The position numbers and the translations under genes were made by a program. Source: Patescibacteria group bacterium (lineage in GTDB: Bacteria > Patescibacteriota > Minisyncoccia > Phycocordibacterales > Phycocordibacteraceae). From it: a DNA stretch of 64,000 nt. Numbering within the stretch: position 1 is the first letter of the stretch; every line of letters begins with the position of its first letter. The stretch spans positions 163,698-227,697 of the forward strand of contig JAZJYZ010000001.1 of NCBI GenBank assembly GCA_040390125.1, in the 5' to 3' direction. Shown here piece after piece: positions 3,750 through 62,410 of this stretch. Below the pieces are notes generated by a model. It saw only the letters and a list, made by a program, of their open reading frames with translations, was not told where the DNA came from and did no database searches.

Positions 3750-5486
3750 ATGGTCGTTCCCGACGCACAATTAAAGACATTTGTGATTGATTCTGGGTTG
3801 GTATCCCGGAAAGATTTTGAATCTGCAGAGAAAACTGCAAAAGATACAGCACAGCCCTTGAGTGACACGCTGGTTTCTGCCGGTATTTTGAGCGAAGACG
3901 ATCTTCGCCGGATGCAGGCACACATACTCGGGATTCCGTTTATATCTCTTTCAGGAATCAAGATAGATTTTGAAGTACTCTCGCTCATTCCGGAGCCTAT
4001 TGCCCGCAAACACAATGTCATTGCATATAAGAAGACAGACGACTCTCTTGAAGTGGCAATGCTCTACACAAGCGACTTGGAGCCTTTGAATTTCATAAAG
4101 AAGAAAATAGGGTTGAAAATTCTACCTCGCCTGACCGACACTGCATCTCTAAAGAGTGCACTCTTGCAGTATCAGAAGTCTCTAAAGGAAGAATTTGGCG
4201 ACATTATTCAAGGTGCTTCGCAGTCGATTACAGATACTGAGAGTTTGGACACCGCAGGCTTAAAGAAGCTTGCTGATGATGTGCCGGTCATTAAGGTGGT
4301 GGACACTCTGCTTCGGCATGCGGTAGTGCAGGGTGCATCGGACATCCATATTGAGCCATTAGAAGAGATGCTCCTGGTGCGGTATCGAATCGACGGGGTA
4401 TTACATGATGCGATGGAGTTGCCAAAAAATATTGCAGCGGGTGTGACGGCACGCATTAAGGTGCTGGCAAACTTAAAACTTGATGAGAAACGTCTTCCGC
4501 AAGATGGTCGCTTTAAGATGGAAGCCGACAAAGAGAGAGTGTCGCTCCGTGTATCTGTGATGCCTACGTATTTTGGAGAAAAAACAGTGATGCGTCTTCT
4601 TCGTGAAGGCGGGGGAGGATTCACACTCGAATCGTTAGGGTTTCATGGTGTTGCACTTGAGCGTGTACATGCAGCATCAAAACAATCGACAGGTATGATT
4701 TTGATGACGGGACCAACGGGAAGTGGAAAGACGACGACCTTGTACACCATTTTGGATATTTTGAACACGCCCGACGTAAATATTTCAACCATTGAAGATC
4801 CTATTGAATATCAAATGCCACGTGTAAACCAGACACAAGTGAGGGCCGACATTGGTTTCACTTTTGCCTCAGGCTTACGCTCTCTTGTGCGTCAAGACCC
4901 GGACATCATCATGGTTGGAGAAATTCGTGACACTGAAACTGCGTCACTTGCAATCAACGCAGCCTTGACGGGACATCTTGTCCTCTCAACCCTTCATACT
5001 AATTCTGCAGCGGCGGCAATACCACGTCTCGTCGACATGGAGGCAGAGCCGTTTCTCTTGGTTTCATCACTTAGAGTGATTATCGGTCAGCGGTTAGTGC
5101 GACGGTTAGCTTCTGATCGTATTGAATACACATTGTCTGAAGAAGAGATTCAGCAGTTGAAAGCCACCATTGATATTGATCGTGTTCTTGCTGTTCTAAA
5201 AGAAGAAAAACACATCCCTACCGAGGCAACCATTAAAGAGATTCCATTCTTTAAGCCGAAAGAAAACGGAGTCTCCGTTGATGGGTACTCTGGGCGTATT
5301 GGTATCCACGAAGTTTTGCCGGTAACTCACGAAATACGAGAGCTTATTTTGAAGCGAGTGTCGGCGGATGACATTGAAGTGCAAGCAAAGCATGAAGGCA
5401 TGCTGACAATGGTGGAGGATGGAATTTTTAAGGCGGCGACAGGAATTACAACGATTGAAGAAGTCCTCCGAGTTATTAGCGAGTAG
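3750..5486 (+). CDS. pilB: Type IV pilus assembly ATPase PilB/GspE family
   Basis: Walker A GPTGSGKTTT; 578 aa; followed by pilC and pilin genes. Confidence 0.9.
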   Translation: MVVPDAQLKTFVIDSGLVSRKDFESAEKTAKDTAQPLSDTLVSAGILSEDDLRRMQAHILGIPFISLSGIKIDFEVLSLIPEPIARKHNVIAYKKTDDSLEVAMLYTSDLEPLNFIKKKIGLKILPRLTDTASLKSALLQYQKSLKEEFGDIIQGASQSITDTESLDTAGLKKLADDVPVIKVVDTLLRHAVVQGASDIHIEPLEEMLLVRYRIDGVLHDAMELPKNIAAGVTARIKVLANLKLDEKRLPQDGRFKMEADKERVSLRVSVMPTYFGEKTVMRLLREGGGGFTLESLGFHGVALERVHAASKQSTGMILMTGPTGSGKTTTLYTILDILNTPDVNISTIEDPIEYQMPRVNQTQVRADIGFTFASGLRSLVRQDPDIIMVGEIRDTETASLAINAALTGHLVLSTLHTNSAAAAIPRLVDMEAEPFLLVSSLRVIIGQRLVRRLASDRIEYTLSEEEIQQLKATIDIDRVLAVLKEEKHIPTEATIKEIPFFKPKENGVSVDGYSGRIGIHEVLPVTHEIRELILKRVSADDIEVQAKHEGMLTMVEDGIFKAATGITTIEEVLRVISE

Positions 5487-5576
5487 AATGTAGAAAGTAG
5501 AGAAGTAAACACACTATGCATATTCTTTCTACCTTCCACTTTCTACCTTCCACTTTCTACCTTCCATATACTCACT

Positions 5577-6791
5577 ATGAAATTCAAAGTTACTGCTATC
5601 ACTAAAAGCGGAGAAATGTACACGGACGTCGTCGATGTGGCGGATCGTTTTCAGGTATACCGCGATATACGCGAAAAAGGTGACACCGTTCTTGATTTAA
5701 AAGAGGAGGGGACAGGAAAATCCTTCTCACTCAATTTCTCCCTCGATATATTCAATCCTATTTCGCTTGATGAGAAGGTAGTGCTGGCACGCAATCTTGC
5801 TGCAATGCTTGAAGCAGGCCTCACTATTTCTCGTTCACTTGAAGTGATGAAGCGACAAACAAGAAACGTGCGAATGCAAAACACTCTGACTGCCATTATT
5901 GCTGATGTGAAGAAGGGCGAAACATTCTCCGCCGCTCTTGCCGGGTTCCCTAAGGTTTTTTCGCAGTTGATGATTGCTATGGTGCGTGCCGGAGAAGAAT
6001 CAGGAAAACTCACTGAGGCACTACGGGTCGTTTCCATTCAGATGGAGCGCTCTTCTAATCTGCAGAAAAAAATTAAAGGTGCGCTTATTTACCCAGGAAT
6101 AGTCTTGAGTGCAATGGTGGGCATTGGAATACTTATGCTCGTCTATGTTGTGCCGACGTTGTCTGGAACGTTCAAAGAATTGAAAGTGTCTCTCCCCCCA
6201 ACCACTCAGTTTATTATTGGTGCAAGCGATTTCTTGATTCACAACACACTCGTCGCTCTGCTGTGTTTTGGCGTTCTGGCGGTAGTATGTGTGTGGGCTA
6301 TGCGGTCAGTAAGAGGTAAGCATTTCTTAGGATGGCTTTTTTTGAAAATTCCCGTTATTGGTCCATTAATGGTGGAAATTAATGTTGCACGCACGACTCG
6401 AACACTCGCATCGTTATTTGCTTCGGGTGTTAATGCGATTTTGTCGGTGAAAATTACGTGCGATGTTCTTGAGAATGTTCAATATAAGAAGGTGCTCATT
6501 GAGGCAGAAAAAAGTCTCACTGAAGGTTCACCTTTGTCAGTAACTTTTGCAAAATATCCAAAACTTTTTCCGCCGTTGGTTTCTGAAATCATGGCGGTTG
6601 GCGAAGAAACGGGACGTTTGTCGGTTCTTCTTAAAGAGAATGCAGAATTTTATGAGGATTCGGTGGAACGTCAAACCAAGGACATGTCTACAATCATTGA
6701 GCCGTTCTTGATGATTATTATTGGTGTCATGGTTGGGTTTTTTGCGCTCTCAATGATCGCCCCAATCTATTCATTGTCGAGTGGAATTTAA
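5577..6791 (+). CDS. pilC: Type IV pilus inner-membrane platform protein PilC/GspF
   Basis: 404 aa polytopic membrane protein directly downstream of pilB. Confidence 0.88.
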   Translation: MKFKVTAITKSGEMYTDVVDVADRFQVYRDIREKGDTVLDLKEEGTGKSFSLNFSLDIFNPISLDEKVVLARNLAAMLEAGLTISRSLEVMKRQTRNVRMQNTLTAIIADVKKGETFSAALAGFPKVFSQLMIAMVRAGEESGKLTEALRVVSIQMERSSNLQKKIKGALIYPGIVLSAMVGIGILMLVYVVPTLSGTFKELKVSLPPTTQFIIGASDFLIHNTLVALLCFGVLAVVCVWAMRSVRGKHFLGWLFLKIPVIGPLMVEINVARTTRTLASLFASGVNAILSVKITCDVLENVQYKKVLIEAEKSLTEGSPLSVTFAKYPKLFPPLVSEIMAVGEETGRLSVLLKENAEFYEDSVERQTKDMSTIIEPFLMIIIGVMVGFFALSMIAPIYSLSSGI

Positions 6792-7274
6792 ATGAGGTGT
6801 CAGCTTTCAGCTTTCAGCTTTCAGGCGACGCCTCGTCGGATCCGAAGGGATCATAGGAGGAAAGAAAGCTTTTCGCGAGGGATGACACTTATTGAAGTAG
6901 TCGTCGCCGTCTCTTTGATGCTTATAATTTTCTTGGGATTTTTTGGTGCCTATGTGGCGTCTGCTGACTTGGTGCGGAGCACTTCTGCCCGAAGTGGAGC
7001 TCTCTTTCTTATGGCAAACAGAATGGAATACATAAGGGGGTTGGCGTATGGCTCTATAGGTACTGTGGGTGGAACGCCGTCAGGAAGTCTTGTGGCTAGT
7101 GAGCCAAGGATTTTGAATGGTATTACTTACACCATTCGTACAACGGTTGCATACATTGATGACGGAGCGAATGGTGCCGGTGCCGGCGATTATAAAACAG
7201 TGAAAGTTGAAGCAGATTGGAATTTTAGAAATGTCTCACAAAGTATCTCTACTGTTACCTATGTCGCACCGTAA
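6792..7274 (+). CDS. Type IV pilin / pseudopilin with a prepilin-type N-terminal methylation motif (SRG|MTLIEVVVAV); true start uncertain
   Basis: Class III signal hallmark G followed by xTLIE with E at +5 and a hydrophobic helix. The only in-frame ATG upstream gives a 30-aa leader overlapping the AGCTTTCAG repeats; ATG at 6882 would give no leader. Confidence 0.75.
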   Translation: MRCQLSAFSFQATPRRIRRDHRRKESFSRGMTLIEVVVAVSLMLIIFLGFFGAYVASADLVRSTSARSGALFLMANRMEYIRGLAYGSIGTVGGTPSGSLVASEPRILNGITYTIRTTVAYIDDGANGAGAGDYKTVKVEADWNFRNVSQSISTVTYVAP

Positions 7275-7857
7275 AAACAGCACTACACGTGGCATGACCT
7301 TAGTTGAAGTCTTGATGACAGTTGCGGTTGTTGCAGTGGTTATGGTGAGTGCGTCTGATGCAGTGCTCTCGCTCTATCGGGCAAATTCCACAGGGACACG
7401 CGGAGTGTCGCAGGTCGGAAGTGCGAGGCACGCACTAGATGCATTGATGGAAGAGCTTCGCCAAAGCTCGTATGGTAACGATGGGTCTTATCCAATTGTT
7501 TCGATTGCCACTTCTTCGATTACTTTTTTTAGTGCTATTCCAAATAGTTCAAGTGCCATGCGAGTTCAGTATCAACTTTCAAGCACAACACTAAATCGAA
7601 GTACGGTGAGCCCAGGTACTCCGCCAACATACACAAGCGCCCCGGTCACCTCGGTTGCCACCGCATACAGTAACAATGTTGCTATGGGTATTCCTATTTT
7701 TCGCTATTACGATAAAAATGGTTTAGAAATTACTGACATGACTCGGACTACTGATGTTCGGTCTGTATCGATTGCAATTAGTATTCTCAATCCTGGGATG
7801 ACTACTCCGTTTATGCTGACTGCAACAACGACGTTGCGTAATTTGAGAGGAATATGA
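7261..7857 (+). CDS. Second pilin/pseudopilin (leader MSHRKNSTTRG | MTLVEVLMTVAVVAVV)
   Basis: Prepilin motif with E at +5; the ORF track starts earlier at TTG 7207, and ATG 7261 gives an 11-aa basic leader. Confidence 0.75.
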   Translation: MSHRKNSTTRGMTLVEVLMTVAVVAVVMVSASDAVLSLYRANSTGTRGVSQVGSARHALDALMEELRQSSYGNDGSYPIVSIATSSITFFSAIPNSSSAMRVQYQLSSTTLNRSTVSPGTPPTYTSAPVTSVATAYSNNVAMGIPIFRYYDKNGLEITDMTRTTDVRSVSIAISILNPGMTTPFMLTATTTLRNLRGI

Positions 7858-9104
7858 AGAATCTACCTCAGGTTCCAGCTTTCAGGTTCCAGCTTTCAGC
7901 TACAGGCAACAGAAGGGTGCGGGGGTTTTTGACGATTTTTGTACTCGTTGCTTCCTCCGTGTTTTTATTTTTACTCTCTGAGCTTATGGGCTCACTGACG
8001 TTAGAGCGTTTAGGGGGAACAATAGAGGCCGACAGTGAAAAAGCTTTTCATATAGCCGAAGCCGGGCTTGAGTACTATCGTTGGCACTTTGCAGAGTTTC
8101 CAGGTGATCTACAAGACGGTACTGCAAGTGCGGGGCCCTATGAGCATGATGTAGCGGATCCAGAAACTAGTAACACAATTGGAACATTTTCTCTTGATAT
8201 CTCAGGCATAACTTCATGCGGTGTACTCACATCCGCCACAGTGAACTCAACTGGTTCCATGGCTAGTAGCTCAACACACCGAACTACGTTGATTGCTGAA
8301 TATGGAAAACCCACACTTTCCGCATCAACGAGTCCGGCGAAGTCCGATGCTACAGCAATTGCAACATCGCTCCCAAGTTTGAAGACGTACGCACAGTCGT
8401 CAGGCGTTTACATTGCGACATCCACAGGGTATGGATACAAAATTGTTTTCAAATCGAACGGAACATTTGATGCGTCGCCCGTTACTGGTGTCACGGAGGT
8501 ATGGGGGTATTCAACGGATGATGGGTGGCAACAAGAGGATACGATTATTTCTACAACAGGTGTTGCGGTGAACCATACTGTGCCTTCCGAATGTCCGGTG
8601 GTATTTGTTGAAGATACTGTCTGGCTTCAAGGCACTGTTTCGGGCAAAGTTACGTTAGTTTCCGCAAATATAACAAACGCTGGCGTCGATCCGAATATTG
8701 TACTTACCGGAAACATTACGTACGCCCACGCATACGATGATGGTTTTACGGCGATTGCTGAAGATTCAGTACTGATATCACTAGATTCTCCTGACGTCAT
8801 GCAACTCTCAGGAATCTATGTAGCCAGCAAGGGTCACTTTGGGCGGCATCGCTATGATGCATCCGGCACTCACGCTGTTCCCGTAAGCCTTCAGTCGTCA
8901 GTGCTCCGCTCCACCCTCAACACATTTGGGACATTTGCTTCAATGGAGACAGTTGATACTAAATGGCTCTCTTCCGGTGCGTTTATTTCAGGCTATAGCA
9001 CAAGGACTGATGTCCATGATCCTTTCTTAGGAAAGCTACCTCCGCCGTTCACTCCGGTTACTTCAAATGACTTCCGTTTCACAGACTGGAGAATACAGGA
9101 GTAG
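7854..9104 (+). CDS. PilX-like minor pilin / pilus-associated protein (N-terminal TM helix, then an AFHIAEAGLEY motif typical of the PilX N domain)
   Basis: TM helix LTIFVLVASSVFLFLL followed by an A.AEAG motif; a GTG at 7917 is an alternative start, because the first 60 nt are AGCTTTCAG repeats. Confidence 0.6.
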   Translation: MKNLPQVPAFRFQLSATGNRRVRGFLTIFVLVASSVFLFLLSELMGSLTLERLGGTIEADSEKAFHIAEAGLEYYRWHFAEFPGDLQDGTASAGPYEHDVADPETSNTIGTFSLDISGITSCGVLTSATVNSTGSMASSSTHRTTLIAEYGKPTLSASTSPAKSDATAIATSLPSLKTYAQSSGVYIATSTGYGYKIVFKSNGTFDASPVTGVTEVWGYSTDDGWQQEDTIISTTGVAVNHTVPSECPVVFVEDTVWLQGTVSGKVTLVSANITNAGVDPNIVLTGNITYAHAYDDGFTAIAEDSVLISLDSPDVMQLSGIYVASKGHFGRHRYDASGTHAVPVSLQSSVLRSTLNTFGTFASMETVDTKWLSSGAFISGYSTRTDVHDPFLGKLPPPFTPVTSNDFRFTDWRIQE

Positions 9105-14091: not shown

Positions 14092-14520
14092 CTACGGACA
14101 CGACGAAGCGTCGCCTAAACCCTGCTTAATTTTCTCCGCCACTTCTTTTGCTCCTCCTTCTTTATATTCAGTTCCTATCCACGGCTTATGGGGGTCTCCT
14201 TCAATGCGGGGGATGATGTGCATGTGTGCATGAAATACTAGCTGATGTGCGGCAGGTTCGTTGTTCATTGTTATGTTAATGCCGTCTGCTCCGACGGCAT
14301 TTTTTATGACGGGTGCAAGATAGTACACTGTTTTCATTACTTCTAGCCAAACACTTTCCGGCATGTCCAGCATATTTCTATAATGAACTTTTGGAACTAC
14401 GAGTGTGTGGCCTGCATTATTAGGACGGATATCAAGAAATGCGAACGTATGCTCGTTTTCAAATAGCATTTCTGCCGGGATTTCTTTGGCAATTATTTTA
14501 CAAAATAGACAATCAGTCAT
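14092..14520 (-). CDS. HIT-family (histidine triad) nucleotide hydrolase
   Basis: HAHMHIIP histidine triad motif. Confidence 0.9.
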   Translation of the reverse strand: MTDCLFCKIIAKEIPAEMLFENEHTFAFLDIRPNNAGHTLVVPKVHYRNMLDMPESVWLEVMKTVYYLAPVIKNAVGADGINITMNNEPAAHQLVFHAHMHIIPRIEGDPHKPWIGTEYKEGGAKEVAEKIKQGLGDASSCP

Positions 14521-14623
14521 AGGTTAGGTGTCAGCTGCCAGCTTTCAGGTTCCAGCTTCTCTTAATTCAAAGCTGAAAGCTGGAACCTGAAAGCTTCCTC
14601 TCTAAAATGTTACCATGTCCTAA

Positions 14624-16309
14624 ATGCAGATACTCCACCCGTTAGTCGAGCGAATACTTGAAAATAGAAAGATTGAAGACCGAGAGTTGTTCTTGAATCC
14701 TCTGTATGACGCAAGACACGACCCATTTCTTTTGAAGGGGATGGATGTGTCAGTTGCACGGATTCTCGAAGCAATAAAAAAAGGAGAAAAGATATGCGTA
14801 TGGCACGACTATGATTGTGATGGCATTCCCGGTGGAGCACTTCTTTTTGATTTTTTTCGTCGCATTGGATATGAGATCGAAACATACGTGCCCGAGCGAA
14901 GTGAAGGATATGGGCTCAATGTTCCCGGCATTGATTCTCTGAAAGAAAAAGGAATCTCTCTTATCATCACTGTTGATTGTGGAATCACTGATGTTCTAGA
15001 AGTGGCACATGCAAACAGTCTTGGAATTGAAACAATTGTTACTGACCATCACCTTCCGCAGGCAACACTTCCACCAGCACTTGCAGTTATCAATGCGCAC
15101 CAATCGGATGATGTGTATCCGTTCAAGGGGCTGTGTGGCACTGGTGTTGCATTTAAGTTAGTAGAAGCTCTCATTCAAAAAGGTTCGTTCAATATACCCG
15201 AAGGATCTGAAAAGTGGCTATTGGATTTGGTAGCAGTTGCAACAGTTGCGGACATGGTGCCGTTAACTGGTGAGAATCGTACTCTTGTAAAATATGGGCT
15301 CACGGTTCTGAGAAAAGGCAGACGTCCTGGCTTGAAGGCATTGCTGGAAGCTGAACGCATTCCGCTTATGACCGTTGCTGAGGATGATATCGCTTTTTCT
15401 ATTGCACCAAAAATAAATGCGGCGTCACGTATGAAGAGTCCGAAACTTTCCTTCGAGCTTCTCACAACCGAGTCAGAAACACGAGCACGGGAAATTGCAA
15501 AAGAGTTAGTGCAGTTAAATCAAGCACGGAAAATCGAAGGTATGCATGTAGCCAAAGATGTGAAGAAACGAATGGAAATGATGCCGAGCATTGATTCTGT
15601 AGTGGTTATGGGGAGTCAATCATGGCGACCCTCACTTTTAGGCATAGCGGCAACGAATATTGTTGAAACGTATCAGCGTACCGTGTGCTTGTGGGGAATG
15701 GACCCTTCGACCGACTCAGGGCAAGTGGGTCTTATTAAAGGATCATGCAGGTCAAACGGCACCGTGAATATTGTTTCCTTAATGGTAGAAGCCAAAGATG
15801 CCTTTTTGGATTTTGGTGGGCATGAGCTTGCGGGCGGGTTTTCTGTCTCGCCTGAAAAAATTCATGATTTACCTCTGAAGCTTCAGCAAGCACTCGAGTC
15901 GCTTACGTCGAGAGGGGGCGGAGAAATAGATTCAGGGGCCAGAAATAAAGGCGTAGTTGAAAGTTCATTAACACTCGCTGAAGTAAATGACATTGCATTT
16001 GATGCGCTTCGTTCTCTTGCTCCCTTTGGTATGGAAAATCCAAAGCCTTTTTTCAAATTCAACAACGTTTCAGTTCTCGGGATTAATCGTTTTGGTAAAG
16101 CAAAAGAACACATTCGGCTTACTTTTTCCGATGATTCGGGACGGAAAACAGACGGCATCGTTTTCTTCGTTCCACGTTCCTCATTCAAAGATACGCTCGA
16201 GCTTCTCTCGGTAGGGGATATGTGTACCATTGAGGCATCTATTGAGCGTTCGTATTTTGCTGGTAGGAAAGAATTACGTTTACGAATAGAAAACATGCTT
16301 GTGTCTTAG
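14624..16309 (+). CDS. recJ: Single-stranded-DNA-specific 5'-3' exonuclease RecJ (DHH/DHHA1)
   Basis: 561-aa ORF carrying a DHH motif (TDHH at the VTDHHLP stretch), consistent with DHH/DHHA1 architecture. Confidence 0.9.
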   Translation: MQILHPLVERILENRKIEDRELFLNPLYDARHDPFLLKGMDVSVARILEAIKKGEKICVWHDYDCDGIPGGALLFDFFRRIGYEIETYVPERSEGYGLNVPGIDSLKEKGISLIITVDCGITDVLEVAHANSLGIETIVTDHHLPQATLPPALAVINAHQSDDVYPFKGLCGTGVAFKLVEALIQKGSFNIPEGSEKWLLDLVAVATVADMVPLTGENRTLVKYGLTVLRKGRRPGLKALLEAERIPLMTVAEDDIAFSIAPKINAASRMKSPKLSFELLTTESETRAREIAKELVQLNQARKIEGMHVAKDVKKRMEMMPSIDSVVVMGSQSWRPSLLGIAATNIVETYQRTVCLWGMDPSTDSGQVGLIKGSCRSNGTVNIVSLMVEAKDAFLDFGGHELAGGFSVSPEKIHDLPLKLQQALESLTSRGGGEIDSGARNKGVVESSLTLAEVNDIAFDALRSLAPFGMENPKPFFKFNNVSVLGINRFGKAKEHIRLTFSDDSGRKTDGIVFFVPRSSFKDTLELLSVGDMCTIEASIERSYFAGRKELRLRIENMLVS

Positions 16310-16315
16310 ATCTCT

Positions 16316-17023
16316 ATGAAAAAAGTTATACATCGAAGTGATGAGCGAGGGAGAGGAGAATACGGCTGGCTTACTACTCGCTACAGTTTTAGTTTTGCAG
16401 ATTGGCATGAGCCGACACGTATGGGTTTTGGCGCACTTCGAGTTATTAACGACGACGTGATTTCAGCAAGCTCCGGTTTTGGTATGCACCATCATCGAGA
16501 TATGGAAATAATTACTATAGTCACTAAAGGTACGGTGACCCATAAAGACAGTATGGGAAACGTCGGGGCAGTTCCCGCAGGTGACGTGCAGGTTATGTCG
16601 GCGGGAACTGGTGTTACTCACTCCGAATATAATGACTCGAAAGAAGAAGTGCTTTCTTTATTTCAAATATGGATACAGCCAAAAGAGTTTGGTATTAAAC
16701 CCAAGTACGCTCAAAAATCTTTTAATCTTGCTGAAGTAAAGAATGGACTGACACTTCTTGTTGCACCTATTGGAATGGGAGATGGTTTGCCTATCAATCA
16801 GGACGCATATATTTCGTATGCAGTGTTGGACAAAAATACTCCGTGCAACTACACGTTGAGAGAGAAAGGTAATGGTGTGTATCTCTTTGTGGTGAACGGC
16901 GATGTCACTTTTGACGGGGAAATTCTAAACTCAAGGGATGCCGTGGGTGTGTCGGGTGCAGATGAGTTGCTGATGACCTCTTCTCTTTCAGCACGAGTAC
17001 TTGTTATTGAGGCTCCTGTCTAA
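16316..17023 (+). CDS. Pirin-family cupin protein
   Basis: GFGMHHHRDMEIITIV motif (pirin HPHRGFE-like). Confidence 0.82.
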   Translation: MKKVIHRSDERGRGEYGWLTTRYSFSFADWHEPTRMGFGALRVINDDVISASSGFGMHHHRDMEIITIVTKGTVTHKDSMGNVGAVPAGDVQVMSAGTGVTHSEYNDSKEEVLSLFQIWIQPKEFGIKPKYAQKSFNLAEVKNGLTLLVAPIGMGDGLPINQDAYISYAVLDKNTPCNYTLREKGNGVYLFVVNGDVTFDGEILNSRDAVGVSGADELLMTSSLSARVLVIEAPV

Positions 17024-17052
17024 AAGGTTTTTTGAAAATTGGTCTAACGTAT

Positions 17053-17328
17053 CTATATTCTTCCGCTTCCACCACAGGTGGAACATTTTCTGTATGCCCA
17101 TCTTTTTTGTGGGACTCGAAATCTACCCGCTAGTTCAGTTTTCCAATACCCTAACCTCTTTTGTCCCTTGCACACTGGACACTTCTGCTTTCTTTTTTCG
17201 GGTGGACGAGAACCCGCAGTTTTTGATCCGATCATGGGGTCAAGTTTCACATCGGGATAGTTTTCTTTTCGCGCCTTCAGTCTTTCTTGACGTTTTTCTC
17301 TGGGTCTTTCTATCCGGTTCCTTGACAT
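17053..17328 (-). CDS. Hypothetical small basic zinc-ribbon protein (CPVCKG ... CSTCGG)
   Basis: Two CxxC pairs; lysine/arginine-rich. Confidence 0.35.
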   Translation of the reverse strand: MSRNRIERPREKRQERLKARKENYPDVKLDPMIGSKTAGSRPPEKRKQKCPVCKGQKRLGYWKTELAGRFRVPQKRWAYRKCSTCGGSGRI

Positions 17329-17437
17329 ATTCTTATTGTATTCAATATATAATTTTTTATAAATATGTCAAAAAAGCATCTCCTGAATTCAACCTCTCCC
17401 TGCGTATCTACATTCAAGCGTAGGATACAATACCCCA

Positions 17438-17857
17438 ATGTCTCAGATAATTATTTATACCGATGGAGGGTCTCGGGGGAATCCAGGGCCGTCGGGTTCG
17501 GGCGCTGTGGTAAAGGGTTTGAATGGAAAGAACGTCGCAAGTATCTCGGCGTTTTTGGGAGTACGCACTAACAACTGGGCGGAATATGAAGCACTCATTT
17601 TGGCACTTCGTGCTGCTGTTGATGCATTTGGAACACCAGTACCACATGGAGTGGTTGTGAGAATGGATTCAGAATTAATTGTTCGACAGATGAAAGGCGA
17701 ATATAAAGTAAAACATCCAGTGCTTAAGGAGCAATACACAAAGGTCCGTGTACTTATTGCAGAATCATTTCCTCAAATAAAATTTACACATATACCACGT
17801 GAAGAAAACAGCGAAGCAGACGCTCTTGCAAACGAAGCAATGGATCGAGGGGTTTAA
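17438..17857 (+). CDS. rnhA: Ribonuclease HI
   Basis: IYTDGGSRGNPGPSG motif. Confidence 0.9.
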   Translation: MSQIIIYTDGGSRGNPGPSGSGAVVKGLNGKNVASISAFLGVRTNNWAEYEALILALRAAVDAFGTPVPHGVVVRMDSELIVRQMKGEYKVKHPVLKEQYTKVRVLIAESFPQIKFTHIPREENSEADALANEAMDRGV

Positions 17858-17859
17858 AC

Positions 17860-19224
17860 ATGCGTGCCGATTGGCTACTTCGTTTCATTGTCCCCGTACT
17901 CTGTATCGGGACGGTCATTGGTGCGGGAGCATATTCGGTATTTGCACCTGAAAAACTTTCCTCGCTTTTTGAGGATTCCATTGGTAGTACCTCTGTCATT
18001 GAAGGTGTGGTTATTAGAGATCCTGATCAACGTGAACGCACGACGCATCTTGCAGTGGAGGTGCAAAAGTTGAATGGCGTTTCTGTTACAGAGAAGGTGC
18101 GAGTGCTTATTTTCTCAGATACGTTTGAGACTGCCGTCTATGGCGACCGCATTAGTGTGAAAGGAAAAATTAAAAAGCCCGAACCATTTGAAACTGATTC
18201 AGGGCGAACATTTAATTATCCAAAATATCTTCGTGCGCACGGCATTCTTTACACGATGTCTTCACCGAGTGTTGCGAAACTAGCGACGGGAGAAGGGAAC
18301 CCTATTGTTGCAGAGCTTCTCTCAATAAAGCACTCGTTTATCAAGGGTATCGAGCGTGCGGTGCCAGAACCTGAATCAGCCTTGCTTGCAGGGTTACTTC
18401 TTGGCGAGAAGCAGTCGCTCGGCGAAAAGCTCACGGAAGCATTCCGCAATGCTGGCGTGGTGCACATCATCGTGCTCTCTGGCTACAACGTGGCACTCGT
18501 TATTCAATGGATTTCGTTCGTATTTTTAAAAATATTTTCACAGAGGGTGGCGTATATTTTTTCCGCACTTTTTGTCGTTGGCTTTGCGATAATGACCGGC
18601 GGATCTGAAACGACTATTCGCGCCCTCATCATGGCGCTTCTCATGATGGTTGCAACCGTTTTGCATCGACCAAAGGCAGCACTTCGCATGCTCGCCATTG
18701 CTGCCGCCACAATGGCAGTCATGAATCCGTTTATCGTTTTGTATGATCTCTCGTTCCAGCTCTCCATTCTTGCAACGCTCGGGCTCATACTATTTTCTGA
18801 AACACTCGCGAGTCGTTTAACGTTCATTCCTAATTTTAAATACTTCCCATTTCGGGAAATTGTATCGACGACTCTGGCAACGCAGGTAACCGTGTTGCCA
18901 CTTCTTATATTTTCTATTGGAGCAGTATCTCTTGTATTTTTGCCCGCGAATGTTCTGGTTCTTCCGGCAGTTCCTGTTGCAATGTTTGTTGGATTCTTTG
19001 CATCGATTACTGCACTTCTCTCGCCGATACTCGCTTTTCCATTAAGTATTGTTGCGTATGGAATTCTTTCCTACATTATTTCTATCGCAACATTTTTTGG
19101 GTCACTGCCATTTGCATCGCTCCCTATTCCACGGGAGTGGATGTGGCCACTGTTAATGGTGCTCGGGTTTGCGTATGCGACCATTGGATGGTTACTGTTT
19201 CACCTAAGGCAGAAATTTTTCTAG
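17860..19224 (+). CDS. comEC: ComEC/Rec2 DNA-internalization channel protein (N-terminal OB-type domain plus the polytopic competence domain); it lacks the C-terminal metallo-beta-lactamase domain
   Basis: LLGEKQSLGEKLTEAFRNAGVVHIIVLSGYNVALV competence-domain signature; 454 aa, ending after the membrane domain. Confidence 0.85.
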   Translation: MRADWLLRFIVPVLCIGTVIGAGAYSVFAPEKLSSLFEDSIGSTSVIEGVVIRDPDQRERTTHLAVEVQKLNGVSVTEKVRVLIFSDTFETAVYGDRISVKGKIKKPEPFETDSGRTFNYPKYLRAHGILYTMSSPSVAKLATGEGNPIVAELLSIKHSFIKGIERAVPEPESALLAGLLLGEKQSLGEKLTEAFRNAGVVHIIVLSGYNVALVIQWISFVFLKIFSQRVAYIFSALFVVGFAIMTGGSETTIRALIMALLMMVATVLHRPKAALRMLAIAAATMAVMNPFIVLYDLSFQLSILATLGLILFSETLASRLTFIPNFKYFPFREIVSTTLATQVTVLPLLIFSIGAVSLVFLPANVLVLPAVPVAMFVGFFASITALLSPILAFPLSIVAYGILSYIISIATFFGSLPFASLPIPREWMWPLLMVLGFAYATIGWLLFHLRQKFF

Positions 19225-19235
19225 CGTGCATATAT

Positions 19236-19265
19236 AAAAAGCCCTCAAATGAAGGCTTTTTATAA
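19236..19265. terminator. Hairpin agccctc aaatg aaggct with flanking A/T runs; a likely bidirectional terminator between convergent comEC and sod
   Basis: Imperfect 7-bp stem with a T-run. Confidence 0.45.
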
Positions 19266-19431
19266 AGCAATTGTCTACGCTCTTATTATTTATACATGCG
19301 ATTGCCTCTGGGCTCGCTTTGCGTTACGCCTCTGTGCACGTTCCCGGCGCAACATGTTAAAGTAATGCCGGAACCGCCATGATGCTGGCATTGCATTGGT
19401 ATATCTTTCATCCATATTTTAGTATAGTACA

Positions 19432-20016
19432 CTAACTAGTTGCCTTTGTCAAGCACTTACTAACAACTACGCCGTTCAGGTTTTTAAAGAAGGCCTCTAT
19501 ATATTGTTTTTTCTCAGCCGGAGTGTAATCCACCATGTAGGCGTGCTCCCACATATCGAGTGCAAGAATTGTTTTTGTGTCGTTGAGTTGTCCTAACTCG
19601 TGGTCAGCAACAAAGTGAGTGAGGAAGTTTTTAGTTGTTGCATCATATGAAAGCAATGCCCAGCCGATGCCTCGCATCATTCCGACGGCTTTAAATTCAT
19701 TTTCCCATGATTCATATGAGCCGTACTGCGATACGAGTGCATCCTTGAGAGAGCCTTCGATAGGGGCGGGCGTTCCCTCCCACTGTGAGAAGTAGTGTTC
19801 GTGCATGCGCATGCCGTTCCACTCAAATCCGATGCGTCGAGTTACTTCAGCGAGGGCGTATGCGTTTTTTTCTGAATCTTTTTTCAGATCCAGAGCGGTT
19901 TCCTCAAGTGTGTTTAAAAATTTCACATAGCCCTCATATAGCTTGATGTGTATCTCAAGTTGCTTTGGTGAAATACCGTCCAAGTTTCCAAAGGTGAATT
20001 TTTTTGCAGTGTACAT
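19432..20016 (-). CDS. Fe/Mn superoxide dismutase
   Basis: DMWEHAYMVDY motif. Confidence 0.93.
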   Translation of the reverse strand: MYTAKKFTFGNLDGISPKQLEIHIKLYEGYVKFLNTLEETALDLKKDSEKNAYALAEVTRRIGFEWNGMRMHEHYFSQWEGTPAPIEGSLKDALVSQYGSYESWENEFKAVGMMRGIGWALLSYDATTKNFLTHFVADHELGQLNDTKTILALDMWEHAYMVDYTPAEKKQYIEAFFKNLNGVVVSKCLTKATS

Positions 20017-20193
20017 ATGAATTAGTGATCAGTGTACAGGGTTCAGTGTTTAGAGAAAAATCTTCTGAGTGGCTATTTGGGCCTTGGGAGCATTATATCA
20101 TTGTGGGTGTGGCGAGAATCCCAGTGAGCAGACTTTTGGTGTTACGACGCTTCGTATGGAAATATTTAAATTTTAAAGCGAATAGCTATTTGA

Positions 20194-21087
20194 TTGCACT
20201 GCATGAGTAATCTTAAAACGAGTCGCACTACAGGATACCAAAAGGTCGCTACCGGGCAGGTGTTCCTCATCGGCATCCTTGTTTTTGGGAATATTTTTGT
20301 ATGGACTATTCCTGTTCCGCACGGGCTTAAAGTTTCATTCCTCAACATTGGACAAGGGGATTCTATTTTTATAGAAGGGCCTACTGGCATACAAATGCTT
20401 GTCGATGCGGGACCTCCAGACAAGTCAGTACTGCGAGAACTTGGAAGCGTAATGCCTCTTTTTGATCGCTCCATCGATGCAGTAGTAGAGACGCATCCCG
20501 ACCAAGATCACCTTGGAGGTATTCCTGATGTGTTTGACCGCTATCAGGTCGGGACATTTTTAGAGCCAGGAATTCCAAATGACACAAAAGCAACGAAGGC
20601 TGTTGTGCTCGCAGTAGAGAAGTCAGGAGTAAAAGATATTGTTGCGAGGCGGGGTATGCGGTTAATTCTTGGCGGTGGGGCATACGCGGATATTCTTTTC
20701 CCTGATAGGGATCTACCAAAGATTGAAACGAACACTGGCTCAATAGTAATGCGTGTTGTGTATGGAAACACATCGTTTTTATTAAACGGGGATTCTCCGC
20801 AGGTAATTGAAAAATATTTGGTGTCAATTGATGGCAAACAACTTCAAAGCACTGTGCTTAAAGCAGGGCACCATGGCTCGAAAAGTTCGAGTACTTCTGA
20901 ATTTGTGAAAGTAGTGAACCCGAAGTACGGAATTTTCTCGAGAGGGTGTGACAATAAATACGGACATCCAGCACCTATCGTCGCTCAATTGTTTTCGAAT
21001 CTGCAGATCCCGATCTTTGATACGTGCACTGATGGGCGTATTACGTTTATCTCTGACGGGGAGAGTCTTGCTATAAAAAGGCAATAA
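20194..21087 (+). CDS. Stand-alone ComEC/Rec2-type metallo-beta-lactamase domain protein with one N-terminal TM anchor
   Basis: HPDQDHLGG MBL motif and KAGHHGSKSS typical of the ComEC C-terminal nuclease domain. Confidence 0.8.
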   Translation: MHCMSNLKTSRTTGYQKVATGQVFLIGILVFGNIFVWTIPVPHGLKVSFLNIGQGDSIFIEGPTGIQMLVDAGPPDKSVLRELGSVMPLFDRSIDAVVETHPDQDHLGGIPDVFDRYQVGTFLEPGIPNDTKATKAVVLAVEKSGVKDIVARRGMRLILGGGAYADILFPDRDLPKIETNTGSIVMRVVYGNTSFLLNGDSPQVIEKYLVSIDGKQLQSTVLKAGHHGSKSSSTSEFVKVVNPKYGIFSRGCDNKYGHPAPIVAQLFSNLQIPIFDTCTDGRITFISDGESLAIKRQ

Positions 21088-21124
21088 TGAATCGTGTGCA
21101 ATCGGGCGCTGTAGAGGTACTATT

Positions 21125-21328
21125 TTATCTGAAGCTACCTGTCAAACAGAAACCGCATTTATCAAACATTATTGGGGCCCTCTTCGCACATGCAGAACAT
21201 GTTTCAACAGCCTCTTCACCTCGAGCTGCTTTAAGGGCATGTTCGACTAGATCGAGGTCGATGGTATGGCGATCCCCCCTGAAAGGAGGGACGAGTCTTA
21301 ATTTTGATTCTGTTTTTGGTTCGCCCAT
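21125..21328 (-). CDS. Hypothetical 67-aa zinc-ribbon ORF (CSAC-x10-CGFC) downstream of rpmB
   Basis: ORF only; overlaps an alternative plus-strand ORF. Confidence 0.25.
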   Translation of the reverse strand: MGEPKTESKLRLVPPFRGDRHTIDLDLVEHALKAARGEEAVETCSACAKRAPIMFDKCGFCLTGSFR

Positions 21329-21378
21329 ATCAATAGTACAGAGATGAATCTGCAGGTAACGTACAAGTGTATTAGTGA

Positions 21379-21621
21379 CTAAATGACGTTTGCTTTTCTG
21401 AGGGTCTTGAATGCACCACGTTTTGCAATGGTTTTTACTGCACGAGCAGAGAGGAGAACAGAGATGTGTTTATTCAATTCTGGTACGAATATCTTGTGCT
21501 TTTGGAGGTTAGCTTTGCGTCGAACTTTTCCGCATGGGTTGTACTGCGTAGCACGGGTACGGTTTGAATACCGACCTCCTACGAGAGATGATTTACCAGT
21601 TACAGCGCATGCTCTAGCCAT
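21379..21621 (-). CDS. rpmB: 50S ribosomal protein L28
   Basis: MARACAVTGKSSLVGGRYSNRTRATQYN... matches the L28 pattern. Confidence 0.85.
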   Translation of the reverse strand: MARACAVTGKSSLVGGRYSNRTRATQYNPCGKVRRKANLQKHKIFVPELNKHISVLLSARAVKTIAKRGAFKTLRKANVI

Positions 21622-33727: not shown

Positions 33728-36700
33728 ATGAACGTTATTTCTCGAAGTGTCAATTTTTCGTTTCTTTTTTTCGGGATCTCTTTTGCTTTGGTAGCAGTGC
33801 TTTTTGTTGCATTGCCAACGCCTGTTCATGCTGGTCCTCAAACTGGTGGTTGCGGAGAATCTTGGGGATATGAGTATACCGTAGTAGTAAACCCGTATAC
33901 GCCATTTACTCCTGCTCATGATGCCTGGCACTCACTTCACGGCGGTGATAGCTACACGGTACAGAGTGCATATCAAATAGCTAGCGTTGGTGATGAGGGA
34001 TGTCCTGTTAGTGATCCACCATACATAGCCCCTACTGTTGGCGTTGTCGTAGTTCCTTTAACTATTACTGCGGGTGAATCTTCCCAGCTTGCGTGGGGGG
34101 CCGAGAATACACTTTCTTGTACGGGCACGAACTTTTCAACTGGCTCGGCCACTCAAGGTGTAGTCACTGTTTCTCCAACAGTGACTACAACCTATTCTGT
34201 TAGTTGTACTGACGGTGCTACTACTGTATCGTCGAGTGCTACGCTATTTGTTAATCCACCACCTGTACCCACAGCATCTCTAAGCGCAAGTACAAATTCT
34301 ATTGTCTCAGGGAGCCCCTCAACGCTCACGTGGAATTCCACGAACGCCACTTCGTGTGCAGGTACTAATTTTTCAACCGGCGGAGCAACGGCAGGATCTG
34401 TGAGCGTTTCGCCAGTGAGTAGCACTTCATACCTTGTATCTTGCACAGGGCTTAGTGGATCGGCTTCAGCTTCTGTTACTGTCACCGTAACGCCTCCAGT
34501 CCTCCAAGCAAGTTGTTCAGTTTCATCCACGTCTGCCATTGTTGGGCAAGCAGTCACGTGGACTGCCGTACCTTCCGGTGGTACCGGCTCCTACACGTAT
34601 TCCTGGAGTGGAAGTGATAGTCTTTCAGGTACAGGAAGTTCAGTTTCGAAATCATACTCATCGACGGGTACCAAAACTGGCTCTGTTAGTGTCACCTCTG
34701 GATCGCAAACAACTTCGGTGACTTGCTCGAACAGTGTGTCGATAAGTAATGCTCCAGTTGCTGTTTCTTGTTCAGTATCTCCAACCTCTGCCACCGTCGG
34801 TAGCTCTGCTACGTGGAGCGCAAGTGCCTCAGGTGGCACCGGCTCCTACACGTATTCGTGGACTGGTACTGACAGTCTTTCCGGCACGGGTGCGTCTGTA
34901 TCCAAAACATATTCCACGACGGGAACAAAAACTGGATCGGTAACGGCAACCTCCGGCGGACAATCGGCTACAGCAAATTGTTCAAACAGTGTAGTGGTGA
35001 GTAACACTCCAGTAACTGGTTCTTGTTCGGTGTCGCCATCTTCTCAAACAACAGGCAGTGCCGTCACGTGGAGCGCAAGTGCTTCCGGTGGCACCGGCTC
35101 GTACAGCTATGTATGGAGTGGCACCGATAGTCTTTCAGGCAGTGCCAGTTCCGTTTCGAAGACGTATTCAAGCACTGGCACGAAGAGTGGCTCAGTAATA
35201 ATTACTTCAGGGGGAAATTCTACGAGCGTGACCTGTGCAAACTCGGTATCAGTAAGTTATCCGGCAATTACCGGCTCGTGCTCTGTGTCGCCTACAACTA
35301 TCACCGCAGGTGGTTCTGCAACGTGGAGTGCAAGTGCTTCTGGTGGCTCCGGTTCCTACACGTATTCTTGGAGTGGTACGGACAGCCTTTCTGGCACAGG
35401 CACATCAGTCACAAAAACCTACTCCAGTTCGGGTGCGAAGACTGCCTCGATTACTATTACTTCAGGCGGAAGTTCCGAGGTAATTAACTGCTCTAATGCA
35501 CTCACGGTAGGTAATGTGCCGGTAGGTGGTTCCTGCTCTGTAACGCCAACCAGTATGTATGCCGGTAGTTCTGCAACATGGACTGCTGTACCTTCAGGTG
35601 GCACCGGCTCGTACACGTATGTATGGAGTGGCACTGACAGTCTTTCAGGTACTGCTAGCTCGGTTTCAAAAACGTATTCAGGAAGCGGTATTAAGACGGG
35701 TTCCGTCGCAATCACTTCAGGAGGAAATTCTGCTACTGTGACGTGTTCGAATTCTGTTGCAGTGAGTGTGACGTTGTCGGATCTCATTACTGGTGCTGTG
35801 TCTCCAACTTCTGCCGTTGCAGGTGTTGCACAAATGTTTTCTGCAACAATCACCAACATTGGGCAGTCTGGGACGAATGGTGCTTTCACGAGTTTATTCC
35901 AGCGAGCAACATCTGCAGGTGGTGCAAATACGACCGATATTGGCACCGATGGCTCTCCGAGTGTGTCTGCAAATGGTACAGACGTGGCTGGGCTTTCGTA
36001 TGCGTTTCCCTCAGGAGGTATTTGGTACTTACGTGTTTGGGCCGACAAAAGCGGAACGGCGGATTCGGGGGCCATTAATGAGTCGAGTGAAAGCAATAAC
36101 TCAGGTGCATGGACTGCAATCTCTGTGTCGAGCCCAACATTGAGTGCGTACTGTAATGTCGCACCTGCCTCGGGATATTCTGGAGATACATTTACGTGGA
36201 CGGCATACCCATCTGGTGGCACCGGCTCCTACACCTATTCGTGGACTGGCAGTGACGGACTCTCCGGCACCACGCAAAGTGTTGCAAAATCATATTCGAC
36301 TTCTGGCACTAAGACTGGTTCCGTGACGGTGGTTTCTGGCGGGCAATCGGTAGGTGCCACATGTGCATCTGCAAATCTATCGAATGTTCCAAGTGCGCTC
36401 ATAACCGCAACTCCAAATTCTATTATTCTTGGCAACACGTCTCGTCTTGACTGGACTTCTTCAAACGCATCTTCCTGTAACAGTTCTGCTTTCTCGACCG
36501 GCGGGGCACCATCGGGTTCCGTAACCGTTACCCCTTTAACTACAAAAACCTATGACCTGACCTGTACTGATGGCACACGAACAGGTGTCTCTAGCGCAAC
36601 GGTGACCGTCGTTCCTGTTGGACTCACGCTTTCAATCAATCCTTCAACGACAGTTCGTCAAGGGGATCCTGCAACAGTTAACTGGTCAGTGAGTGGAAGT

Positions 36701-36871
36701 CCTGATTCTTGTTCAATTCAGGGTCCTGGTCTCTCATCAACCGCTCTCTCTGGGTCACGGGTAGTGACTATTACTGCGGAGAGCACTTACGTCCTCACGT
36801 GTACCTCAGGAGGTTCTTCGATAACCACTTCAGTCACTATAGGCCTGACCCCCCACTTTGAAGAGTTTTAA
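33728..36871 (+). CDS. Giant 1047-aa secreted Ser/Thr/Gly-rich tandem-repeat protein. It has a signal peptide, 6 copies of an 85-aa Cys-bracketed module (CSVSPTS..TW.A.ASGGTGSYTYSW.GTDSLSGTG.SVSKTYS.TGTKTGSV...C.NSV.VSN) and 4 copies of a second roughly 70-aa module (L.W.S.NA.SC....FSTGGA..GSV.V.P....Y.L.CT). It is inserted between rplB and rpsS
   Basis: Uninterrupted 3144-nt ORF; about 255-bp nucleotide-level tandem repeats (ggtggcaccggctcctacacgtattcgtgg recurs at 34576, 34830, 35088, 35342, 35596, 36212); hydrophobic N-terminus ending ...PTPVHA. Confidence 0.8.
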   Translation: MNVISRSVNFSFLFFGISFALVAVLFVALPTPVHAGPQTGGCGESWGYEYTVVVNPYTPFTPAHDAWHSLHGGDSYTVQSAYQIASVGDEGCPVSDPPYIAPTVGVVVVPLTITAGESSQLAWGAENTLSCTGTNFSTGSATQGVVTVSPTVTTTYSVSCTDGATTVSSSATLFVNPPPVPTASLSASTNSIVSGSPSTLTWNSTNATSCAGTNFSTGGATAGSVSVSPVSSTSYLVSCTGLSGSASASVTVTVTPPVLQASCSVSSTSAIVGQAVTWTAVPSGGTGSYTYSWSGSDSLSGTGSSVSKSYSSTGTKTGSVSVTSGSQTTSVTCSNSVSISNAPVAVSCSVSPTSATVGSSATWSASASGGTGSYTYSWTGTDSLSGTGASVSKTYSTTGTKTGSVTATSGGQSATANCSNSVVVSNTPVTGSCSVSPSSQTTGSAVTWSASASGGTGSYSYVWSGTDSLSGSASSVSKTYSSTGTKSGSVIITSGGNSTSVTCANSVSVSYPAITGSCSVSPTTITAGGSATWSASASGGSGSYTYSWSGTDSLSGTGTSVTKTYSSSGAKTASITITSGGSSEVINCSNALTVGNVPVGGSCSVTPTSMYAGSSATWTAVPSGGTGSYTYVWSGTDSLSGTASSVSKTYSGSGIKTGSVAITSGGNSATVTCSNSVAVSVTLSDLITGAVSPTSAVAGVAQMFSATITNIGQSGTNGAFTSLFQRATSAGGANTTDIGTDGSPSVSANGTDVAGLSYAFPSGGIWYLRVWADKSGTADSGAINESSESNNSGAWTAISVSSPTLSAYCNVAPASGYSGDTFTWTAYPSGGTGSYTYSWTGSDGLSGTTQSVAKSYSTSGTKTGSVTVVSGGQSVGATCASANLSNVPSALITATPNSIILGNTSRLDWTSSNASSCNSSAFSTGGAPSGSVTVTPLTTKTYDLTCTDGTRTGVSSATVTVVPVGLTLSINPSTTVRQGDPATVNWSVSGSPDSCSIQGPGLSSTALSGSRVVTITAESTYVLTCTSGGSSITTSVTIGLTPHFEEF

Positions 36872-36926: not shown

Positions 36927-36945
36927 AGTGTGGTAGCCTAAATTG

Positions 36946-56411: not shown

Positions 56412-56612
56412 AGAGGGGTTAGTGACGGAGTATTAACCTCGTTGAAAAACTTTAGGGAGCTTTACATCGTTATGTGCTGGTGACTCCCTTTGGGGGATTC
56501 CGAAGCCCATTAACTGCGAGCACCCACCTGGAGCTTCGGCTCTAAGGTTAATACTCCGTCAGTGACCCTTTCAAATTCCGCCGTACGAGCAGAGTCTTGT
56601 GGCGGTTTTTTT
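56412..56612 (+). ncRNA. Candidate structured ncRNA (6S-like or regulatory leader). A roughly 23-bp closing helix pairs 56415-56438 with 56545-56567, internal hairpins lie between them, and an intrinsic terminator sits at 56578-56612
   Basis: Long-range complementarity gggttagtgacggagtattaacc / ggttaatactccgtcagtgaccc seen directly; internal gggag...ctccc and gagcttcggctc (UUCG loop) hairpins; T-run. Confidence 0.35.
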
Positions 56613-56655
56613 ATTTTTGCCTAATTACAGACCTGCGTTTGCTACTATAGAGACT

Positions 56656-61457: not shown

Positions 61458-61499
61458 CCACAAATACAAAAGCCCGCCTAAGCGGGTTTGTATTTGTGG
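61458..61499 (-). terminator. Long palindromic hairpin ccacaaatacaaa-agcccgc-ctaa-gcgggtt-tgtatttgtgg overlapping the tmRNA 3' end; presumed ssrA terminator
   Basis: About 19-bp inverted repeat seen directly. Confidence 0.55.
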
Positions 61500-62393: not shown

Positions 62394-62410
62394 CAGGCTT
62401 TAGCATACCG

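Follow-up and report, generated by a model that had tools for sequence, protein, structure and literature searches.

We have analysed a 64,000-nt stretch of contig JAZJYZ010000001.1 (assembly GCA_040390125.1) from a metagenome-assembled Patescibacteria group bacterium, referred to here as the window, and all coordinates are those of this window. ComEC, the universal DNA-import channel of natural transformation, is encoded in it by two separate genes. The first gene (17860-19224, + strand) encodes a channel half of 454 residues (MES2134810.1), and the second gene (20203-21087, + strand) encodes a metallo-beta-lactamase (MBL) nuclease half of 294 residues (MES2134813.1). Between them, on the opposite strand, lies an Fe/Mn superoxide dismutase gene (sod, 19432-20016, - strand; Pfam Sod_Fe_C E 4.2e-20, with matches to the NCBIfam SOD models). 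We consider it likely that the two genes encode a two-subunit ComEC. The two proteins are recorded on a contig of 748,944 bp. As parts of the two-subunit reading, we infer the physical association of the halves and their topology, the activity of the nuclease, the direction of the evolutionary change and a role of the halves in DNA uptake. The first-pass annotation of this DNA had proposed a split ComEC, and the split proved genuine: the channel open reading frame (ORF) is without the nuclease, a ComEC nuclease is present on a separate ORF, and the arrangement recurs in dozens of genomes.

Gene identities were assigned by scanning the window ORFs against Pfam and NCBIfam profiles. The domain search that had been suggested as a check placed DUF4131 and Competence on the channel ORF and the nuclease on the separate ORF. 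In the channel half, DUF4131 (PF13567) was matched with an E of 6e-17 (62.3 bits, cutoff 31.6), and Competence (PF03772) was matched over profile positions 1-266 of 270 with an E of 1.1e-45 (156.6 bits, cutoff 23). In the same Pfam scan, Lactamase_B was absent from the channel ORF, which stops at 19224. The channel half exceeded the cutoff of TIGR00360 (ComEC_N-term; 67.4 bits against 36.5) and covered positions 39-358 of the 663 positions of TIGR00361, where its score of 82.0 bits is below the equivalog cutoff of 190.05 and represents only part of the model. On the full-length ComEC 30bt_A, residues 74-451 aligned to residues 121-495 (E 2.2e-30). The layout of the protein consists of one N-terminal transmembrane (TM) helix, the OB fold (DUF4131) and the Competence domain up to the equivalent of TM10, and the public annotation names it a 'ComEC/Rec2 family competence protein'. 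At the N-terminus (window 17860-17950), the window protein and its closest relatives showed a single TM helix ahead of the OB fold. Most related Patescibacteria channels have a hydrophobic N-terminus of about 70-85 residues, which corresponds to roughly the usual three TM helices by a crude hydropathy count.

The nuclease half has a Lys/Arg-rich N-terminus, one hydrophobic helix at about residues 20-38 that is equivalent to TM11, and a beta-lactamase-like nuclease domain. Its start is ATG 20203 in the public annotation, and the alternative TTG at 20194 would give a protein of 297 residues. A sequence search of the whole PDB with this half gave six matches, all of them ComEC proteins, the best being the crystallised ComEC nuclease domain 9ic4 (E 3e-33, 118.7 bits). 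Residues 21-287 aligned to residues 512-789 of 30bt_A (E 2.6e-32, 115.6 bits), and this alignment begins inside the N-terminal hydrophobic helix. The best NCBIfam match was TIGR00361 at positions 421-663 (E 6.2e-28); the score of 97.3 bits is below the equivalog cutoff of 190.05 and covers only part of the model. From these ComEC-only PDB matches and the C-terminal part of TIGR00361 as the best NCBIfam match, the earlier description of the gene at 20194 as a TM-anchored MBL of the ComEC type was upheld.

The catalytic residues were also present. The residues H98-P-D100-Q-D102-H103, D197 and H223-H224-G-S226 of the nuclease half aligned to H598, D600, D602, H603, D700, H725 and S728 of 9ic4, which mutagenesis has shown to be required both for the nuclease activity of ComEC and for transformation (PMC12455585). 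Among the stand-alone members of the MBL family, these residues were invariant or present in 24 of 25. In a fold comparison, the nuclease half ranked ComEC above Pce and Pce above RNase J, and the same ranking of Pce and RNase J has been published for authentic ComEC domains (PMC12455585). One stand-alone homologue (P0051, 'bacterium' Q7R74_01540) carries ESTPNADD in place of ETHPDQDH and YGFP in place of YGHP. Judged by these motifs, this nuclease half probably lacks catalytic activity and has been kept all the same. A second MBL of the window (56599-58032), with Beta-Casp and RMMBL domains of the RNase J/CPSF-like type, is unrelated to the ComEC nuclease half and distinct from it.

The first-pass annotation had itself raised the possibility of a generic MBL unrelated to ComEC. 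It is very improbable that the gene at 20203 lies near the channel gene by chance and encodes a beta-lactamase, a generic MBL hydrolase or an MBL nuclease of anti-phage defence (Avs1a, Lamassu or DRT type). Such an identity could draw on sub-threshold matches, namely blaAHM as the best beta-lactamase match (64.3 bits, cutoff 590), Avs1a (40.1 bits, cutoff 420), and the PADLOC models RTasMBL and LmuA (about 63 bits each), the last two being partial matches at residues 43-116 and 175-257. However, the ComEC matches were stronger and full-length and included the TM helix. No defence partner genes are adjacent, the neighbours being sod, L28 and a methyltransferase; throughout the clade, the gene keeps its synteny with the channel gene; and the structural ranking agrees with that of authentic ComEC domains. 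With scores below the curated cutoffs and stronger ComEC matches, a generic, beta-lactamase or anti-phage identity, 6A-MBL included, was effectively refuted at the family level.

The two halves together tile an intact ComEC. On 30bt_A, they occupy residues 121-495 and 512-789 without overlap, leaving a gap of about 16 residues, and on TIGR00361 they cover positions 39-358 and 421-663, again without overlap. The cryo-EM structure of ComEC contains 11 TM helices; TM10 and TM11 are separated by a short helix on the cytoplasmic side, and TM11 leads into the periplasmic nuclease domain (PMC13539106). This puts the break in the cytoplasmic loop that joins TM10 and TM11, and leaves TM11 and the nuclease domain to the second gene. 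In the same cryo-EM work, TM11 was 'entirely absent in one protomer' (PMC13539106).

Structure prediction was carried out with AlphaFold2 (AF2) on the concatenated halves. In single-sequence mode the result was uninformative, with a mean predicted local distance difference test (pLDDT) score of 39.9. When the concatenation was supplied with 40 homologues of the channel half and 20 of the MBL half in a block-diagonal (unpaired) alignment, the model reached a mean pLDDT of 87.9 and a predicted template-modelling score (pTM) of 0.69. Values below 50 were confined to residues 452-469, which form the artificial junction. In the channel half, the pLDDT was mostly above 85, and the beta-strands of the OB fold were located at residues 44-142. 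In this model, each half is predicted to fold as the matching part of ComEC, with the joint as a disordered linker. The model also weakly suggests that the halves dock.

To describe the distribution of the split, species-representative genomes were scanned, and the 80 loci obtained were classed by hidden Markov models built from both half families. Of these, 56 loci of the Patescibacteria type were informative, having enough upstream sequence. The channel gene was found upstream of the MBL gene, on the same strand and within 8 kb, in 51 of the 56. The linked loci took three forms. In 30 of the 51, as in the window, the halves are separated by an antisense sod. The two genes abut or overlap in 13, where some pairs show ATGA stop/start overlaps and others are separated by 1-12 nt; each of the three relative reading frames is represented, and every MBL in these loci has a Lys/Arg-rich N-terminus followed by a TM helix. 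The remaining 8 loci hold other genes in the slot, with a gap of up to 7.9 kb. The order, orientation and linkage of the pair persist across lineages at about 35-55% protein identity. In four of the 8 loci with other genes, those of the Yonathbacteria type (L010, L012, L015 and L021), the slot contains an antisense gene for a predicted membrane protein of 196 residues that is 82-89% identical among them, and insertions seem to have occurred repeatedly in the slot between the halves. Among the loci labelled 'uncultured Candidatus Saccharibacteria', many cluster with Paceibacteria and share their synteny, so that these labels look unreliable.

The homologues of each half gave the same picture. 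The best 120 homologues of the MBL half were all stand-alone proteins of 230-346 residues, and the best 120 homologues of the channel half were all 377-481 residues long, none with Lactamase_B. A chimeric query spanning the junction found no fused relative among 5.8 billion protein clusters, with a maximum coverage of 53% and a longest match of 463 residues. Relatives had been proposed for a comparison of fused and split forms, and this comparison was clear: the protein is split in Patescibacteria, and the nearest ComEC-linked homologues outside Patescibacteria were fused in 10 of 10 loci (721-861 residues). These ten loci belong mostly to Chloroflexota (Dehalococcoidia, Anaerolineae and others), together with Ignavibacteriae and Longimicrobium. 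The split is far beyond chance and recurs in dozens of independent genomes.

These results also bear on whether the split is an artefact or a pseudogene, that is, a fused comEC interrupted by a frameshift, a nonsense mutation or a mis-assembly. The sequence does come from a metagenome-assembled genome, but the chance that the split arose in this way is practically negligible. Reading of the translation showed an intact 585-nt sod with all four metal ligands between the halves. Fifty further species-level genomes show the same architecture, and so does an independent Logan assembly of the locus. Purifying selection on both halves is obvious, their motifs being conserved, and the 5.8 billion protein clusters held no fused close relative. 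The intact sod, the recurrence and the purifying selection effectively refuted an artefact or pseudogene.

For the two-subunit ComEC, we propose the following mechanism. Subunit 1 (17860-19224) would be the single-stranded DNA channel with an extracytoplasmic, DNA-binding OB-fold domain, and subunit 2 (20203-21087) would consist of TM11 and an extracytoplasmic, metal-dependent, beta-lactamase-like nuclease. The positively charged N-terminus of the MBL protein would stay in the cytoplasm, and its single helix would tether the nuclease to the membrane's outer face. The nuclease would then dock non-covalently beside the OB fold and the channel entrance. In this case, type IV pili would deliver the DNA, the nuclease would degrade the non-transported strand, and the channel would import the other strand. 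Import of one strand with degradation of the other is suggested by homology and by a related organism, since Wang et al. 2023 report that comEC is required for natural transformation in another, cultivated patescibacterium, Southlakia epibionticum (PMC10633639).

Several observations weigh against a two-subunit ComEC. The association of the two proteins is itself something that we infer, and the AF2 model that bears on it is of a covalently joined chain built from an unpaired alignment. In vitro, the ComEC nuclease shows higher activity if its polypeptide also carries the OB fold (PMC12455585), so that separating the two might carry a cost. In 5 of the 56 informative loci, no channel gene was present within about 4-10 kb upstream, and in one family member (P0051) the metal-binding motif is degenerate. 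Furthermore, stand-alone ComEC-like MBLs of 294-526 residues exist in Firmicutes (L072 from Paenibacillus, L075 and L077) with no comEC channel within 10 kb, and therefore a free-standing role for this fold is possible. The polarity of the change, fission or an ancestral split followed by fusion elsewhere, depends on an unbootstrapped neighbour-joining tree and on the placement of Patescibacteria beside Chloroflexota.

The unlinked loci and the Firmicutes proteins are also what an alternative would build on, in which the MBL is a free-standing, membrane-anchored surface nuclease or phosphodiesterase derived from ComEC, serving for example in nucleotide salvage through the digestion of DNA or RNA outside the cell, in an organism unable to make nucleotides, and the channel works alone or with another nuclease. 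The genes in the window look like separate transcription units, with a terminator-like hairpin and the antisense sod between them. The isolated ComEC nuclease domain is active in vitro by itself (PMC8579336, PMC12455585), and CPR (candidate phyla radiation) bacteria are thought to scavenge nucleotides, according to Meheust et al. (PMC6744442). However, the order, orientation and linkage with the channel gene are kept across lineages, and the neighbours change from clade to clade while the channel-MBL pair stays. The overlapping start and stop codons suggest coupled expression, and the MBL keeps the helix equivalent to TM11 and has no cleavable signal peptide. We therefore regard a free-standing nuclease as unlikely and prefer the two-subunit ComEC. 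The Firmicutes proteins resemble the nuclease half as single-domain MBLs of the ComEC type but differ in being unlinked to comEC and outside the Patescibacteria clade, and they are probably paralogues rather than fission products.

The first-pass annotation had suggested that splitting may allow the strand-degrading nuclease to be regulated independently. In the window, a palindromic hairpin (19233-19264), identified as an inverted repeat and by RNA folding, lies 9 bases past the stop codon of the channel gene, with an A-run and a T-run on its flanks. It has 15-nt arms that are 93% complementary and folds at -15.7 kcal/mol (z = -4.39), and none of 200 shuffled sequences folded as well. By its sequence, it resembles an intrinsic terminator that would act in both directions, on the channel gene and on sod, which converge here. 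The MBL gene begins 186 nt past the sod start on the opposite strand. From this gene geometry, we presume that it has its own promoter in the divergent intergenic region 20017-20202. Because the terminator-like hairpin and the antisense sod lie between the halves, separate transcription units are likely here. On the one hand, the hairpin and the antisense sod agree with independent regulation in this organism. On the other hand, the basal gene pairs overlap (ATGA) or lie 1-12 nt apart, and therefore the split did not arise as regulatory uncoupling.

Other scans of this region were negative. A consensus promoter and terminator scan of 17300-21500 gave no more matches than shuffled sequence and missed the hairpin, a sigma-70 consensus scan found nothing convincing in the sod/MBL intergenic region, and Rfam gave only chance-level matches (E >= 0.69) in both intergenic regions flanking sod. 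In 19 loci with sod alone in the slot, the median spacing from sod to the MBL gene was about 64 nt. The 3' ends of the channel and sod genes often overlap, by up to 73 nt (L009, L014, L019, L026, L035, L080 and others). Only about 30-80 nt separate the starts of sod and the MBL gene in those relatives, and three genes on alternating strands are thus packed unusually tightly.

In terms of evolutionary history, the neighbour-joining tree of MBL domains, which is unbootstrapped, placed the stand-alone forms of Patescibacteria in one clade beside the fused Chloroflexota domains, with the Firmicutes sequences outside this clade. In the same tree, the abutting splits were on basal branches and the sod-interrupted forms in the crown group. 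The simplest history that these placements indicate is one fission, followed by insertion of sod and then by occasional further insertions. Patescibacteria are placed as the sister of Chloroflexota. In this history, comEC would have been broken in the TM10-TM11 loop in the ancestor of the sampled Patescibacteria, giving at first two abutting genes that were probably translationally coupled. An antisense sod would have been inserted afterwards in the Paceibacteria-type clade, to which this organism belongs, giving separate transcription units.

The opposite direction, in which the two-gene state is ancestral, the fused ComECs elsewhere arose by fusion and Patescibacteria keep a primitive arrangement, seems rather improbable to us. 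The history inferred by Pimentel & Zhang speaks for it, with an ancestor that had only Competence and multiple gains of Lactamase_B (PMC6299819), and the polarity would be ambiguous if Patescibacteria branch deeply. However, as far as the unbootstrapped tree goes, the stand-alone MBLs group next to fused Chloroflexota domains, and the Firmicutes sequences fall outside. The helix of the MBL half is also homologous to TM11 of fused ComEC, and cutting a protein with multiple TM helices is the simpler event.

Compared with canonical ComEC/Rec2, such as those of B. subtilis and Neomoorella carbonis (PDB 30bt, PMC13539106), the proteins of the window show the same three modules in the same order and with the same catalytic residues, at a nuclease-domain identity of roughly 30-40%. 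They differ in that the modules are on two polypeptides, encoded by genes 1 kb apart with an antisense sod between them, and in that the channel of the window lineage has one TM helix ahead of the OB fold, whereas the canonical protein has three. A single N-terminal TM helix is also predicted for the ComEC of Helicobacter pylori (PMC13539106). H. pylori is an example of the ComECs without the C-terminal domain (the 'DC' and 'C' profiles), which resemble the channel half in having no MBL domain. Unlike those proteins, the channel half has a candidate nuclease encoded next door. How strand degradation occurs with such ComECs was called 'an open and interesting question' by Silale et al. 2021 (PMC8579336).

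In S. pneumoniae, ComEC works with EndA, and there too a membrane-bound strand-degrading nuclease is encoded apart from the channel; for the window protein, this role is suggested by homology. EndA belongs to a different nuclease family, whereas the separate nuclease here is the ComEC domain itself, detached with its own TM helix. The ComEC of S. pneumoniae keeps its MBL domain, which is probably inactive (PMC12455585).

The first-pass annotation had also stated that the MBL nuclease is the C-terminal domain of ComEC in most bacteria. This holds as a majority but a bare one: Pimentel & Zhang 2018 give 52.3% of Competence-domain proteins with a C-terminal MBL (PMC6299819). By these figures, a nuclease domain on the same polypeptide is typical of ComEC but not obligatory, since about half lack the domain. 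In the same survey, proteins such as the channel half were scored as being without Lactamase_B (PMC6299819). For CPR bacteria, Meheust et al. 2019 state that the ComEC-MBL fusion is absent (PMC6744442). In the searchable literature, we found this statement but no description of a separate, linked ComEC MBL gene in CPR bacteria. Annotation pipelines sometimes label the MBL protein 'competence protein ComEC'. Accordingly, this is apparently a lineage-wide two-gene form of a well-known machine that is visible in annotations and has not been explicitly described.

The split leaves the understanding of ComEC function unchanged. Its importance is that, across a large part of Patescibacteria, the nuclease is retained as a protein of its own, linked and membrane-anchored, which offers a concrete and testable answer to the question of the missing nuclease in one large group of bacteria. 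Correction is needed in surveys where these genomes count as 'Lactamase_B lost' or as having a different ComEC family. The idea of a nuclease working in trans becomes directly testable, and the TM10-TM11 loop is a naturally marked permissive split site, of use in the production and dissection of a protein that has proved hard to express. A wider proposal is doubtful in our view, namely that the detached TM11-nuclease is the strand-degrading partner of the 'nuclease-less' ComEC throughout the phylum and that ComEC-type nucleases encoded in trans also serve ComECs without the C-terminal domain in other bacteria. In that proposal, the back-to-back placement with sod in the Paceibacteria-type clade would let the nuclease, which is possibly Mn-dependent, be expressed independently of the channel, perhaps in response to metal or oxidative stress, and it could double as a surface DNase that scavenges nucleotides.

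Upstream of the two halves, the genes named in the region 14092-21087 were all present with the positions and identities first assigned to them, as judged from the ORFs, Pfam and NCBIfam. They include a HIT hydrolase (14092-14520, - strand; PF01230, E 2.5e-24), RecJ (14624-16309, + strand; TIGR00644, 475.7 bits against a cutoff of 396.9), pirin (16316-17023, + strand; PF02678, E 2.2e-33) and an RNase HI-type protein (17438-17857, + strand; RVT_3 / RNase_H). The idea that these genes form a functional neighbourhood for DNA uptake and processing was not supported as stated. RecJ, HIT and RNase HI lie upstream of the channel gene in many Paceibacteria-type loci, but this adjacency occurs only in the Paceibacteria block, which also contains TIM, PGK and ribosomal protein L28, and it is absent from the basal split loci. 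There, the neighbours are GlmS, an SPFH protein, NusB, and adenylate kinase (ADK) or NDK. No counterpart of the pirin gene was found in the 80 related loci; in a block that is conserved in other respects, it seems to be an insertion specific to this lineage. Channel gene and MBL gene are the one pair that stays together throughout, and the other adjacencies reflect lineage synteny.

Type IV pili are the usual partner machinery of ComEC. The pilus cluster reported at 3750-9104 was confirmed for a T2SSE/PilB-like protein (3750-5486, + strand; E 2.8e-117), a T2SSF/PilC-like protein (5577-6791, + strand; E 2.3e-52) and two N_methyl prepilins (6792-7274 and 7207-7857, + strand), all by Pfam. The 416-residue ORF that closes the cluster (7854-9104), which had been called pilX, had no match in the Pfam scan. 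The cluster thus contains the assembly ATPase, the platform protein and the prepilins with a methylation motif that mark a type IV pilus. From this general background and by analogy with S. epibionticum (PMC10633639), the pilus genes at 3750-7857 may be linked to DNA uptake. No comEA, dprA or comF was found among the window ORFs that were scanned.

Elsewhere in the window, a surface-type protein of 1047 residues with PKD and CARDB domains (33728-36871) is followed by an IS200-like Y1 transposase (36943-37638). The segment 33728-37638 lies amid ribosomal-protein and translation genes and has a GC content of 0.508 against about 0.45, and it is probably a mobile insertion in a ribosomal-protein region. 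A 960-residue protein (52383-55265) matched TraG-D_C and TrwB_AAD_bind and resembles a VirD4-like coupling protein of type IV secretion systems; it may belong to the conjugation-type secretion system of Patescibacteria described in PMC12102498. Although ARAGORN reported no tRNA or tmRNA in the 64 kb, Rfam identified a tmRNA at 61494-61900 (- strand, 103.7 bits), which adjoins SmpB (61942-62658).

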